A stretch of DNA of 64,000 nt, taken from an uncultured delta proteobacterium. Its GTDB lineage: Bacteria > Desulfobacterota > Binatia > Binatales > Binataceae. The translations under genes and the position numbers were made by a program. This document shows, in pieces, positions 52,511 to 55,851 of the stretch. A model generated the notes under the pieces. That model was not told the DNA's origin, did not search any database, and worked only from the letters and a program-made list of their open reading frames with translations. Within the stretch, counting starts at the first letter, position 1, and every line of letters starts with the position of its first letter. The stretch is from the NCBI GenBank assembly GCA_963699705.1, contig CAVOUW010000001.1, positions 33,929 to 97,928 of the forward strand, in the 5' to 3' direction.

Positions 52511-53866
52511 CTACACTTTCCTCCCGTCGTAAACAATTTCGCCGCCAACAATAGTCAGAACCGCCTTGCCCTTCAGGCGCATCCCGGTAAACGGAGTGTT
52601 GCGGCTCTTTGAAAGAAACTTTTCCGGCGCGACGGTCCATTCGAGATTCGGATCGATCAGCGTGACGTCCGCAGTCGCGCCAACCGCAAGCGTCCCAGCC
52701 TCGAGTCGCAGCAACGCCGCTGGATTAACCGACATCATCTCAATCAGGCGCGTCGGCTCTATTAACGATCGATGCACCAGTTGAAGCGCGAGCCCGAGCG
52801 CGGTCTCGAGACCGACGACTCCATTCGCCGCATGAGCGAACTCCTCTGCGCTGTCATGGTCGAGATGCGGCACCGAATGCGCCGGGCCGAAATATGCTCC
52901 GAGTTGCTCCATTCGCTTCGACTTGGGATCGTGCGGCGCATGGTCGGTAGCGATCATGTCGATAGTACCGTCCCGAATCGCAGCGAGCAGGCCTTCGACG
53001 TCGGCTTGACTTCGCAGCGGCGGGTTCATCTTCGCGTTCGGCCCCCATATCATCGCCGCGCTTTCGTCCAGGGTGAAATGATGAGGCGTCACTTCGCACG
53101 TGACCTGCGCGCCATGCCGGCGTGCGGCGCGGATGAGGTCGAGCGACTCGGGCGTCGACACGTGACAGACGTGAACCGCCGCGCCCGAACCGATCGCCAG
53201 CGCGAGATCGCGACGCACGCGCTGCGATTCCGCCGAATCCGAATAGCCACTGACCCCAAGATGCTTCGACACGGCGCCGGCGTTCAATGCTCCGTGGCAC
53301 GACAGCGCGCGATCCTCTTCGTGCAGCGCGACCGCATATCCGAGCCGCTTCGCTTCATCCAACGCGCGCGACAGAACCATCGCATTGTCGATGGGAATGC
53401 CATCGTCTGAAAACAATCGCGCCCCCGCTTCAATCATCGCAGCGAAATCCACCGGATCGATTCCGCGAAGTCCATGCGTGACTGCCGAAACCGGCACCAA
53501 CCGGGCCGAGTGGGCTTCGCGGGCGCGCTCGAGCATGTAACGCGTCGTTGCGGGATTGTCATTGACCGGCGACGTATTCGCCATCGCCGCGACGGTTGTG
53601 AATCCACCAGCCGCGGCAGCGCGCAGGCCCGTTTGGATCGTTTCCTTTTCGGGGAAGCCGGGGTCGCGCAAATGTACGTGCGGATCGATCAGGCCAGGAA
53701 CGATCCAGCATCCGCTCGCGTCAACTATAGTTGCGTCGGGCGGATTTGTCGGCGTCCCGGGTTCGACCGCTGCGATCTCGCCATCGCGCAACAACACGTC
53801 GTACTTGCCGTCGAGTGCGTTGGCGGGATCGATTACTCGACCTCCCTTGAGCAGAATCGAGTTCAA
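52511..53866 (-). CDS. pyrC: Dihydroorotase
   Basis: [35 protein letters not shown]. Confidence 0.93.
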
Positions 53867-55851
53867 TGCGCCGCCTCGGGTTCTTTCATCGGTTCGACGA
53901 TTGAATAAATTGTTACATGGTCGTGGGTTCTGGCTTTCGGATCGCTGCCGCCGGTGCCGAGGCGCACCTGGACGCGCTCGGTGCGCGAGGTCGGGATGTT
54001 CTTGCCGACATAGTTCGGCCGGATCGGGACTGCGCGATGCCCGCGATCGATCAACACCGCCAGCTTGACCGCGGCTGGACGCCCGCGCTGCCAGATTGTC
54101 GCCATCGCGCGCTGCACGGTCCATCCGCTGTTAATCACGTCGTCAACGAGGACGATCGTGCGGTCTTCGACGACGAAGGTTTCGGTGCCATCGATTGGAT
54201 GCAGCGGATCGTCCGGCTTGTACACGTCGAGAGCGGCGCACGGCGGAAAAACCTTGGTCTTGGATCCGATCAGTTCGCGTAATCGAAGCGCGAGCATCGC
54301 TCCGCGACTGACGACGCCGACGATCGAGACGCTCGGCATGTCGAGCACGTCGGCAATCACCTGGTCGGCGAGCGATTCGATCGCGCGAACCACTTCCTGC
54401 TCATTCATAATTTCGCGCTGCGGGCCGCGCTTGTAGGGTTCGTAGCCGCCTTCCTCGGCCTGCTTGACGCTGTCGAACACCGCCAGCGAACCTTCTTCGA
54501 TCCACTGGCGCACATAGCCTTGGAGGTTTTCGTCGAAGCGGTAGTAGCGATGCGAGCGCGCATGACCCACGTACTCGGTCTTCAATTCGCGTTCGCAGTA
54601 GTCGCATTTCAGCGCGAGCACGCTAGTATCCGCGCTCCGCCCGAGCGTGAAGCGCGGAGCCAGATAAGCGCCTTCGAAACGCGTGATGCAGTTCAGATTA
54701 GAGCATCGCGGCGGCGACTCGGCCTTGAAACGAATCGGCTCAGCGGTCACGCGCGGACTGGTAGAGGTGGCGGTGGCTTTTTCCATCAGCCATGCAATCA
54801 AAGCCATCCGGACCGGCACACCGGCGGCAGCTTGCTCGAAATAGACCGCGCGCGGATCGGCATCAAGCTCGTACGCAAGTTCGTTGGTCCGCGGCAACGG
54901 ATGCATCACGACGGCTTCGCTGGTGCGACTGGTGCGAAGCGCGCGCGCGTCGAAGCGGACGTACTCGCCCGCGCCGGCTTCCTTGCCCGACATGCGTTCC
55001 TTCTGCAATCGCGTCACGTAAAAGGCGTCGAGAGAGGTCGGCGGTTCGCTCGCGGGAATTTTTTGAAGCGCATCGCCCCCGGTGAAGAGCGCCATCTGAT
55101 GCGGCGCGCTGGGAGTCAGGTAGAGCGCGTCGAGCCCGCCCGCCAGCGACTTCAGCTCGTCCATCGTGACAGTCGAGAAGCTGTAATTGCGCTCGGCGGC
55201 GAGCCGCTCGAGGACGTAGTCGGGAACGTCCATGCCGCTGGTGGGTACGGCGACGATGTTCGCGCCGAAACGCGCGAGCGCATAGATGAGCGAGTGCACA
55301 GTGCGGCCGAATTTGAGATCGCCGCATAGCGCGACCGTCAGTCCCTTCAGGTGGCCCTTCTTTTTGCGCAGGATGTAGAGATCGCACAGCGTCTGAGTGG
55401 GATGCTCGCGGCTACCGTCGCCGGCGTTGAGTACCGGGCATGGCGCGTACTCGGCAGCGACGCGCGCTGCACCGTCATGCGGATGCCGCAGCACGATCAG
55501 GTCGGCATAGCCGGCGACGACGCGGACGGTGTCGGCGAGGCTCTCGCCTTTGGCGGCGGAGCTTGCCTGCATATCGGCCGAGCTGATCACGGCGCCGCCG
55601 AGGCGATGCATCGAGGACTCGAAGCTGAGACGCGTGCGGGTCGAAGGCTCGTAGAAGAGCGTCGCCATGATGAGGCCGGCGGCGGTCGTGATCTGTTCGC
55701 CGCGCTCGAGCCGGGCGGAGAAGTCGTCGGCGAGCGCAAACACGCGTTCGATGTCCGAGGTCTCGAGATCCTCGATCGAAACGACGTCAAATTTTGCCAG
55801 CCGTGACACTTTAGTATTCGGCGCGTTTTGGGTGCGCGCGTTCGACCTCAT
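53863..55851 (-). CDS. pyrB: Aspartate carbamoyltransferase fused to PyrI-like Zn domain and PyrR-like PRTase domain
   Basis: [48 protein letters not shown]...[32 protein letters not shown]. Confidence 0.9.

Follow-up and report, generated by a model that had tools for sequence, protein, structure and literature searches.

The locus described here raises the question of how aspartate transcarbamoylase (ATCase), a classic model of allosteric regulation, might be controlled where no PyrI allosteric domain is detected; a search with PF01948 found no match in the protein concerned, nor at E ≤ 1 in its 96.6%-complete genome, although it does pick up the domain in control genomes, those of E. coli and T. 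maritima among them. The window, a stretch of 64,000 nucleotides from a metagenome-type assembly of 3 contigs of an uncultured soil bacterium, contains a pyrB-type gene that is fused to several further modules. The gene and its parts are as follows.

53863..55851, minus strand: fused pyrB-type gene; 662 aa, ATG start, no internal stop
54772..55806, minus strand: ATCase catalytic chain, residues 16–360; TIGR00670 and 1ml4 matches, active-site residues intact
55036..55155, minus strand: conserved aspartate-domain insertion, residues 233–272; placed by alignments to solved and reference ATCases
54712..54771, minus strand: variable linker, residues 361–380; little conservation in the alignment of 23 sequences, pLDDT below 50 at residues 363–366
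54574..54711, minus strand: PyrI-type zinc domain, residues 381–426; PF02748, alignment to E. coli PyrI, four Cys
54424..54573, minus strand: Cys-less Ada-like adaptor, residues 427–476; hhalign and structural match
53932..54423, minus strand: PyrR-homologous phosphoribosyltransferase (PRTase) domain, residues 477–640; alignment to PyrR structures in the PDB, NF003549, PF00156
53866..53931, minus strand: C-terminal tail, residues 641–662; conserved V..YS motif, beyond which the sequence varies

The chain thus runs from an ATCase through a PyrI-type zinc domain and a Cys-less Ada-like module to a full-length PyrR homologue. An initial annotation, made from the letters of the DNA, had proposed this four-module 662-aa reading frame, with an intact ATCase chain, a zinc domain that lacks the nucleotide-binding half of PyrI, a Cys-less Ada-like segment, a PyrR-like PRTase, an insertion flanked by LDALYLT and LDAFYVT in the catalytic chain and a separate pyrR upstream. 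Each of these proposals holds up under domain-architecture search, profile and structure alignment and structure prediction, as detailed below. Pfam recognizes OTCace_N (residues 22–162, 150.5 bits), OTCace split over two stretches (66.8 bits), PyrI_C (residues 382–426, 32.8 bits, cut-off 23.4) and Pribosyltran (residues 479–614, 46.7 bits). Conservation was assessed in an alignment of 23 fusion sequences with identities down to 40%, in which the ATCase active site, the four zinc Cys, G429, W450, F459, A465 and Y473 of the adaptor, and D570, D571, V572, G576 and T578 of the PRPP loop are invariant. The true start may be a GTG 14 codons downstream of the ATG; in the same-genus relatives L019 and L020 the frame is open only from this GTG, and residues 1–15 have pLDDT values below 50 in the AF2 model. 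The model is also below 50 from residue 602 onwards (31–40 for residues 602–662).

The catalytic chain exceeds the TIGR00670 cut-off (290.4 versus 236.95 bits), falls within PF02729 and PF00185 and matches the P. abyssi ATCase 1ml4 with an E value of 7e-78. Residues S70, T71, R72, T73, R74, K101, R122, H123, H150, Q153, R183, R281, Q283, L319 and P320 are invariant (23/23 sequences). They are the counterparts of the ATCase active-site set, which in E. coli numbering comprises STRTR, K84, R105, H134, Q137, R167, R229, Q231 and the HPLP loop. The nearest relatives of the fused chain are the catalytic chains of P. abyssi, M. jannaschii and E. coli (37–40% identity), whereas the ATCase of a sister family without the fusion is only 33% identical; judged by sequence, the fused chain belongs with the PyrI-associated ATCases. 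It is also the sole ATCase of the genome, in which the one other OTCace_N match is an OTCase. The insertion, about 37 aa in length, duplicates a strand motif, placing LDALYLT ahead of the canonical LDAFYVTR. Alignment puts query residues 233–272 at residues 218–220 of the P. abyssi enzyme and query residues 224–270 at residues 208–218 of the E. coli enzyme. Within it Y244, P247 and L255 are invariant among the 23 sequences, and conservation is 90% or higher at P250, H251, Q252, F256 and T257; AF2 predicts strands at 242–247 and 276–279, with low confidence at 249–263, and the insertion alone matches no Pfam family at E ≤ 10.

Behind the linker, the zinc domain carries the motifs CSNLNC...CDYC (DNA 54705–54595), and its cysteines C383, C388, C416 and C419 pair with C109, C114, C138 and C141 in an alignment to residues 108–150 of E. 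coli PyrI. Scores of 32.8–36.4 bits on PF02748 place it in the family of the four-Cys C-terminal zinc domain of PyrI, and a VIA structural comparison matches it to Moritella PyrI (Z 4.3). Invariant residues, besides the four Cys, are N385, E393 and F401. A Foldseek search with a model of the zinc domain and adaptor together returned nothing at E ≤ 0.001, with PyrI chains at the top of the list at E of about 0.3, and a protein atlas search with the same piece gave no usable match.

The module that follows is related to the N-terminal zinc domain of Ada (PF02805; 1u8b, 1eyf) at the level of profile and fold. Aligned by hhalign with the Ada_Zn_binding family, the segment reaches a probability of 92.9% (E 3.6e-7) over 45 columns, whereas the zinc domain, used as a control, reaches 0.16%. 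N-Ada 1u8b is the top VIA match among 48,161 chains, albeit with a low Z of 4.6 (rmsd 2.7 Å over 47 residues, model residues 55–106), and in the Foldseek list Ada 1zgw comes as late as rank 50 (E 2.0). The segment differs from Ada in its context, which is other than DNA repair, and in lacking the four zinc-binding cysteines, whose places are taken in the fusion by Y, E, Y and G; hhalign also places a four-residue insertion in the helix region. It is invisible to Pfam: no family, PF02805 included, matched it at E ≤ 10, and a six-frame scan of the genome with PF02805 missed it while detecting two other Ada domains. Single leftover Cys residues occur at Ada ligand positions in some relatives, as RYC in L032, L035, L036, L037 and L040 and as YRCG in L037.

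The PRTase domain is compared below with the stand-alone PyrR encoded next to the fusion, which is itself preceded by a candidate regulatory RNA.

55848..56426, minus strand: stand-alone canonical pyrR; NF003549 213.6 bits, cut-off 138
56406..56500, minus strand: candidate PyrR-binding leader RNA upstream of pyrR; RF00515 at 36.9 bits (E 0.025), gathering score 54 not reached

The probable start codon of pyrR is the ATG at 56396, and the gene ends in a TGA that shares the sequence ATGA with the ATG of the fusion. Stand-alone PyrR is both a pyr mRNA-binding attenuator and a uracil phosphoribosyltransferase (UPRTase). Residues 478–640 of the fusion align end to end with PyrR 1non (chain residues 5–167, E 4e-28), and the structures 1non, 1a3c and 1w30 (from B. 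caldolyticus, B. subtilis and M. tuberculosis, respectively) all match the fused domain over its full length (E 4e-28 to 8e-24). Unlike these proteins, it is attached to an enzyme and falls below the equivalog cut-offs of the PyrR models NF003545–NF003549 (best, NF003549, 132.1 versus 138 bits); it shares 38% identity with the neighbouring PyrR. The PRTase fold (PF00156) and the PRPP loop (DDV..TG.T) are present, and D570, D571, V572, G576, T578 and A582 are invariant in 23/23 aligned sequences and in 24/24 fused domains.

To describe what the fused domains share with PyrR, we scored them (n = 24) at the 57 columns whose conservation reaches 75% or more across 78 stand-alone PyrRs. They keep 29 columns, including DDV..G.T, GRP, DRG.R..P and G.K, keep 16 partly and have lost 12. 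The lost columns include four in the N-terminal helix, three in the YRDD loop, R580 and D613; the helix and the loop, which together account for 7 of the 12, are thus not conserved family-wide as they are in PyrR. In the loop the Y, the R and the second D are lost and the first D is partly kept (46%), with conservation of 4–46% in fused domains versus 79–99% in the stand-alone proteins. The D613 column holds N in 19 of the 24 fused domains and D in none. In the window the fusion reads [12 protein letters not shown] at the N-terminal helix and YKPDD at the YRDD loop. The Arg of GRT in the PRPP loop, invariant in stand-alone PyrR, is Trp in fusions of the window's family and is kept in 29% of fused domains; the deepest members (P0132, P0147 and P0145) retain both (F/Y)RDD and GRT. 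The fused domain keeps its phosphoribosyl-binding core, and the pattern of kept and lost columns is more in line with a sensor than with an enzyme or a regulator that binds RNA.

Known ATCases provide the context for this proposal. In the class B holoenzyme two catalytic trimers are bridged by three regulatory dimers (PyrB6–PyrI6). The fusion resembles class B ATCases (E. coli, archaeal) in its catalytic subtype and in the four Cys of its zinc domain. It differs from them in having no detected N-terminal nucleotide-binding domain of PyrI, in carrying catalytic and regulatory parts on one chain, in placing the putative sensor C-terminal rather than N-terminal to the zinc domain, and in its additional Ada-like module and aspartate-domain insertion. 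The initial annotation was right that PyrB–PyrI fusions are established (NCBIfam NF009916; T. maritima, Chen et al. 1998 as cited in PMC4581275). The T. maritima protein likewise joins catalytic and regulatory functions on one polypeptide; however, it has a complete PyrI, and the present fusion reaches only 83.3 bits on NF009916, against a cut-off of 800, over residues 63–218. Three prokaryotic ATCase quaternary types are distinguished in reviews (PMC4581275), none of them with a PRTase-fold sensor.

We consider it somewhat better than an even chance that a built-in sensor of nucleotides or PRPP stands in for the PyrI allosteric domain. The fusion would then be a self-contained regulated enzyme and the housekeeping ATCase of the organism. 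Its catalytic chain would form the usual trimer, as is established for the family, and the zinc domain would, by homology, dock on it as in class B holoenzymes. The Ada-like module, its metal ligands gone, may act as a rigid adaptor bearing a PyrR-derived PRTase domain from which RNA binding and catalysis have presumably been lost. This domain would bind a phosphoribosyl ligand at the retained PRPP loop, the candidates being UMP or UTP, perhaps GMP or GTP, or PRPP; PyrR itself binds UMP/UTP and, antagonistically, GMP/GTP (PMC7430163). Occupancy of the site, probably together with PyrR-type self-association between chains, would be signalled to the active sites by way of the zinc domain, and the PRTase domain would fill the role of the CTP/ATP-binding PyrI domain in E. 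coli. A predicted complex of two copies of residues 474–662 scored 0.36, compared with a mark of 0.42 and with 0.44 for one control. Binding of a ligand, assembly of the oligomer and any influence on catalysis are all conjectural here. Ligand binding by the fused domain may be weakened or changed, because the GRT Arg is mostly lost and R580 is lost, and the geometry of the signal would not simply be copied from E. coli, because the zinc domain precedes the sensor, unlike in PyrI.

The initial annotation had gone further, proposing replacement of the allosteric domain by a PRTase-fold sensor as a new regulatory class. The structural half of that proposal stands, given the lack of any match to the PyrI allosteric domain, the PyrR-derived domain behind the zinc domain, the same layout in five families and the status of the fusion as the sole ATCase; nucleotide control and the 'new regulatory class' are, by contrast, hypothetical. 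A fully specified version, which we regard as possible but rather unlikely, would constitute a fourth kind of ATCase regulation: the PyrR-derived domain would read the phosphoribosyl pool, UMP and UTP would inhibit, PRPP and/or GMP/GTP would antagonise them, and the signal would pass through the zinc domain and a de-metallated Ada fold, with the insertion forming part of a new interface. If this is true, evolution has swapped the sensor of a textbook allosteric enzyme and kept the docking module.

Several other explanations of the fused domain were weighed. It might serve assembly only, with the PyrR-derived domain and the adaptor holding catalytic trimers together without ligand control. The loss of R580, of the YRDD loop and, in most fusions, of the GRT Arg would agree with this, as would the adaptor being the most conserved of the C-terminal modules (mean column identity 70%, versus 53% for the PRTase domain), but one would hardly expect a domain that serves purely as a scaffold to keep a ligand site over 40% sequence divergence, and the invariance of the six PRPP-loop-region residues makes this reading improbable. 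We find it still harder to credit that the C-terminal domain is an active UPRTase that joins de novo synthesis to salvage. The PRPP loop is intact, the deepest members retain the loop motifs noted above, and a PF14681 search of the genome found no canonical Upp; apart from the stand-alone PyrR (27 bits), it gave a single weak match of 20.6 bits. Against an enzyme, however, stand the degraded YRDD loop and the lost R580; a salvage enzyme would not need a zinc domain or an adaptor, and the adjoining canonical PyrR, which keeps YRDD, R580 and GRT, could provide the activity.

It is very improbable that the fused domain is a tethered RNA regulator that binds the pyr leader and couples the level or state of the enzyme to expression of the operon. 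The domain is a full-length PyrR homologue that retains the C-terminal DRGHR..P.R...VGK block, and the operon has a candidate PyrR-binding site in its leader. RF00515 matches also lie upstream of pyrR in 5/7 relatives (39.9–51.9 bits, all below 54). The N-terminal helix is reportedly the RNA-binding surface of PyrR, as Savacool and Switzer are said to have found in 2002, and it is here that four conserved residues have been lost (12% of fused domains retain the R of column 20 and 12% the E of column 27). Rfam finds one leader site per locus, ahead of pyrR, and a canonical pyrR lies directly upstream of the fusion wherever both regions are visible. The role of an RNA regulator is therefore covered already, because a canonical PyrR (agreeing with the consensus at 56/57 conserved columns) and the candidate leader site adjoin the fusion.

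The last alternative, that a frameshift, a lost stop or a chimeric assembly joined separate genes, has next to no probability and was rejected on the conservation of the fusion, the same unbroken frame being present in 46/151 sampled genomes of the class. The PF02748 matches in these genomes fall into five families (f1, 17/17 plus this genome; f86, 8/8; f87, 1/1; f89, 17/17; f95, 2/2), with one match per positive genome, 45 of the 46 lying within an open frame of 624–844 aa and one being cut by a contig end. A zinc-to-PRTase query matched end to end, with no stops inside the matches, in the same 46 genomes, and no zinc domain was found outside a long fusion frame among the 151. The fusion is thus neither an indel artefact nor absent from relatives, either of which the initial annotation had named as grounds for discarding it. 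Species-representative genomes add 226 further loci, mostly in Candidatus Binatus or Binataceae among the 80 listed, and 116 of the best 120 protein clusters contain all four Pfam families. Seven shorter matches considered as split or intermediate forms (P0129, P0151, P0205, P0138, P0130, P0145 and P0159) begin inside the C-terminal helix of the ATCase or in the middle of a module, and are therefore fragments.

In a quick tree that took 61 of 119 representative PyrRs (those outside 165–215 aa or without a full N-terminal part being dropped), the fused domains cluster together and separate from the stand-alone PyrRs encoded in their own genomes (SH-aLRT 92). P0164 and P0255 fall inside the fused clade; they were treated as fusion fragments and excluded from the column comparison. 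Because the fused domains form one group, the tree indicates a single old origin followed by vertical descent.

Databases name the protein only 'aspartate carbamoyltransferase catalytic subunit' or 'phosphoribosyltransferase family protein', and a full-text literature search found no paper on an ATCase–PyrR fusion. The fusion hints at a mode of pyrimidine control that has not been studied; a widespread group of soil bacteria has no other ATCase, and its regulation therefore governs their pyrimidine synthesis. With the zinc docking domain kept and the nucleotide-binding domain swapped, it offers a natural experiment on the modularity of allosteric signalling. It would also be a case in which the RNA-binding regulator PyrR was reused as the sensor of an enzyme and the Ada zinc domain was reused without its metal.

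One further gene adjoins the fusion.

52511..53866, minus strand: pyrC (dihydroorotase); TIGR00857 379.6 bits, cut-off 279.05, pyrC_multi type

Its likely start is a TTG that overlaps the TGA stop of the fusion. A pyrC_multi-type gene directly after the ATCase recalls the class A, Aquifex-type ATCase–dihydroorotase dodecamers (PMC4581275), although class A ATCases have neither a zinc domain nor a PRTase domain. Because pyrC comes immediately after the fusion and the two genes overlap at the stop and start codons, a complex of the fusion with dihydroorotase is conceivable.

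The fused pyrB is, as the initial annotation had it, a single open reading frame of 662 aa; it is uninterrupted, has an ATG start and carries four Pfam families in the order OTCace_N, OTCace, PyrI_C and Pribosyltran; the coordinates proposed for its zinc and PRTase domains are also correct. NCBIfam classifies the front part as an ATCase (TIGR00670, 290.4 bits; cut-off, 236.95), and residues 478–632 fall on NCBIfam PyrR models, the top one of which (NF003549) scores slightly below its cut-off (132.1 against 138 bits).

Features of the fused pyrB (window positions; residues and Pfam bit scores for domains)
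53863–55851 (-), fused pyrB
54705–54595 (-), C383 to C419 of the zinc domain
54420 (-), start of the PRTase domain
Residues 22–162, OTCace_N, 150.5 bits
Two separate stretches, OTCace, 66.8 bits
Residues 382–426, PyrI_C, 32.8 bits (cut-off 23.4)
Residues 479–614, Pribosyltran, 46.7 bits

The ATCase chain is intact, with its catalytic residues invariant in all 23 aligned fusion members (down to 40% identity). The nearest solved chains all belong to enzymes that work with PyrI: the P. abyssi chain (E = 7e-78) and those of M. jannaschii and E. coli, at 37–40% identity. The catalytic chain also contains the insertion that had been noticed: residues 233–272 lie opposite P. abyssi residues 218–220, and residues 224–270 opposite E. 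coli residues 208–218. It opens with a duplicate strand motif (LDALYLT ahead of LDAFYVTR), and Y244, P247 and L255 are invariant in all 23 members; its middle is poorly modelled (AF2 pLDDT < 50 at 249–263). The ATCase of a fusion-less sister family is 33% identical to that of the fusion; fusion-less sister families have a shorter ATCase type after pyrR and lack the PyrI zinc domain altogether, and the class thus uses two unrelated solutions for the ATCase step. An example is the 347-aa ATCase directly after pyrR in a sister-family locus (L010, 2034–3074, +).

According to an excerpt of a review (PMC4581275), prokaryotic transcarbamylases fall into three quaternary types: complexes of ATCase and dihydroorotase, catalytic trimers combined with regulatory dimers (fused, as in T. 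maritima, or separate) and bare trimers. The fusion has its catalytic chain and zinc domain in common with the second type but is without the allosteric domain that defines it, and it fails the PyrB–PyrI fusion model NF009916 (83.3 bits against 800). Searches of the full text of non-subscription journals, supplements aside, turned up no description of a comparable fusion. Database names are generic; one JGI entry reads ‘aspartate carbamoyltransferase catalytic subunit/pyrimidine operon attenuation ...’.

In a profile alignment, the zinc and adaptor piece covers residues 108–150 of E. coli PyrI (E = 2.5e-5), and C383, C388, C416 and C419 coincide with the four PyrI zinc ligands, which, with PyrI_C above its cut-off, bears out the proposed PyrI-type domain; N385, E393 and F401 are likewise invariant. 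The segment that follows has no Pfam match. In the best of five predicted models of residues 372–482 (pLDDT 80.5; the other four, 53–65), model residues 55–106 match N-Ada (1u8b) as the top hit among 48,161 chains (Z = 4.6, r.m.s.d. 2.7 Å, 47 residues) and residues 1–54 match PyrI zinc domains (Z = 4.3 and 3.7), all Z values being low in absolute terms. The Ada-like identity is better settled by profile–profile comparison of the adaptor with 24 Ada_Zn_binding domains from genomes of the same class (probability 92.9%, E = 3.6e-7, 45 columns; zinc-domain control, 0.16%). The segment had been described as lacking cysteines, and the residues opposite the four Ada cysteines are indeed Y, E, Y and G. 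A single cysteine persists at a former ligand position in L032, L035, L036, L037, L040 and P0132 (RYC, KYC or KFC; YRCG in L037), seemingly as the remnant of a site that once bound metal. Among the C-terminal parts, mean column identity is highest in the adaptor (70%), followed by the zinc (59%) and PRTase (53%) domains.

The sequence that heads the Ada alignment, and is printed as its template row against the adaptor, is a 283-aa O6-methylguanine-DNA methyltransferase from contig 3 of the same genome (L124, 1501–2349, -; PF01035, 100.2 bits). Its four-cysteine Ada zinc domain is C-terminal, whereas that of Ada itself is N-terminal; L141, L142, L144 and L146 share this arrangement.

Solved PyrRs align with the PRTase domain along their entire length (1non, E = 4e-28, chain residues 5–167), in agreement with its earlier description as PyrR-like; its identity to the PyrR encoded next door is 38%. 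In 78 stand-alone PyrRs (19 from the class and 59 representatives), 57 columns reach a conservation of 75% or more. Across 24 fused domains, 29 of these columns are kept, 16 partly kept and 12 lost.

PyrR columns lost in the fused domains
N-terminal helix: R, R, E, E
YRDD loop: Y, R and second D (first D partly kept, 46%)
Two positions: L to I
After the loop: R580, A581
D613: N in 79% of fused domains, D in none

A domain that is a scaffold only has to be weighed against the kept columns (GRP, DRG.R..P, G.K and the phosphate loop DDV..G.T), and an active UPRTase against the losses in and after the YRDD loop; in the family of this genome, Trp also replaces the GRT arginine. A tethered RNA binder has to be set beside the losses in the N-terminal helix, to which the RNA-binding residues of PyrR reportedly belong (Savacool and Switzer 2002). 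The three deepest members retain (F/Y)RDD and GRT, yet the helix residues are gone there too; the helix was therefore the first part to change.

Besides the fusion, this genome has one OTCace_N match, which is to an OTCase (TIGR00658, 374.1 bits), and contains no further ATCase. A PyrI allosteric domain was not found either, consistent with the absence of the PyrI nucleotide-binding half reported for the fusion. Canonical Upp (PF14681) was not found in the 96.6%-complete assembly, in which the model matched nothing but PyrR, at 27 bits, and a PRTase at 20.6 bits; this organism may have no UPRTase other than PyrR. Taken with the module evidence, this inventory makes a self-contained regulated ATCase the most likely reading of the fusion. 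In this reading, docking on the catalytic chain, in the style of class B enzymes, would fall to the zinc domain; the Ada-like fold would be the adaptor, and the PyrR-derived domain the sensor of a phosphoribosyl ligand. According to an extract of PMC7430163, the ligands of PyrR are UMP/UTP and, with antagonistic effect, GMP/GTP, which makes these plausible for the fused domain; PRPP is a further candidate.

An artefact, the weakest alternative, is dismissed by the conservation of the fusion in 46 of 151 class genomes and at 226 loci that encode the zinc and adaptor piece in species-representative genomes. Those 46 genomes match the zinc-to-PRTase query end to end; PF02748, an independent marker, likewise occurs in exactly 46, once per genome, in frames of 624–844 aa in 45, the remaining frame breaking off where its contig ends. 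G282, which is among these genomes, is unpublished; its removal brings the count to 45 of 150, and nothing else claimed here depends on it.

Genomes with PF02748, by family of the class
f1: 17/17, plus this genome
f86: 8/8
f87: 1/1
f89: 17/17
f95: 2/2
Other 14 families: 0/105

A domain-architecture search, proposed earlier as a check, found all four Pfam families in 116 of the best 120 protein clusters (all at least 73% identical); two have no PF02748 entry and two are shorter (593 and 540 aa) and lack PF00156. In the phylum sample (n = 201), the zinc and adaptor part matched only in this genome and one of the same family, other matches being to the PyrR part alone. The 80 loci listed of the 226 are titled Candidatus Binatus, Candidatus Binataceae or uncultured delta proteobacterium/Deltaproteobacteria MAGs, with two contigs binned under different names. 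Among 50%-identity representatives, full-length members P0126, P0132 and P0147 are 32–43% identical in the C-terminal half, and the shorter matches inspected are fragments.

In a quick maximum-likelihood tree (midpoint root, no outgroup), one branch separates all fused domains from the rest (SH-aLRT 92), and stand-alone PyrRs from fusion-bearing genomes form their own clade (15 rows, support 92). These separate clades and the similar branching order within the two groups speak for one old capture of PyrR followed by vertical descent. A recent copy of the neighbouring pyrR is not what the tree looks like.

The operon order is pyrR, fused pyrB, pyrC, carA and carB. The separate upstream pyrR that had been proposed lies directly 5′ of the fusion and is canonical (NF003549, 213.6 bits; family consensus in 56 of 57 conserved columns), and pyrC encodes a pyrC_multi-type dihydroorotase (TIGR00857, 379.6 bits). 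The 4-base overlaps at both junctions suggest translational coupling along the operon.

Junctions and leader (window positions)
55848–55851, pyrR/fused pyrB stop/start overlap, ATGA
53863–53866, TGA of the fusion overlapping the TTG start of pyrC, TTGA
56406–56500 (-), candidate PyrR-binding site RF00515 in the leader (36.9 bits, E = 0.025; gathering score 54)

The candidate overlaps the annotated TTG start of pyrR, so translation more probably begins at the ATG at 56396. Two of seven relatives checked gave no RF00515 match upstream of pyrR; the other five did (L036 7427–7554, L035 3068–3176, L078 2249–2342, L039 2911–3026 and L104 2263–2358), at 39.9–51.9 bits, all below 54. Together with the candidate at 56406–56500, these leaders seem to represent a divergent RF00515 lineage to which the Rfam threshold is blind.
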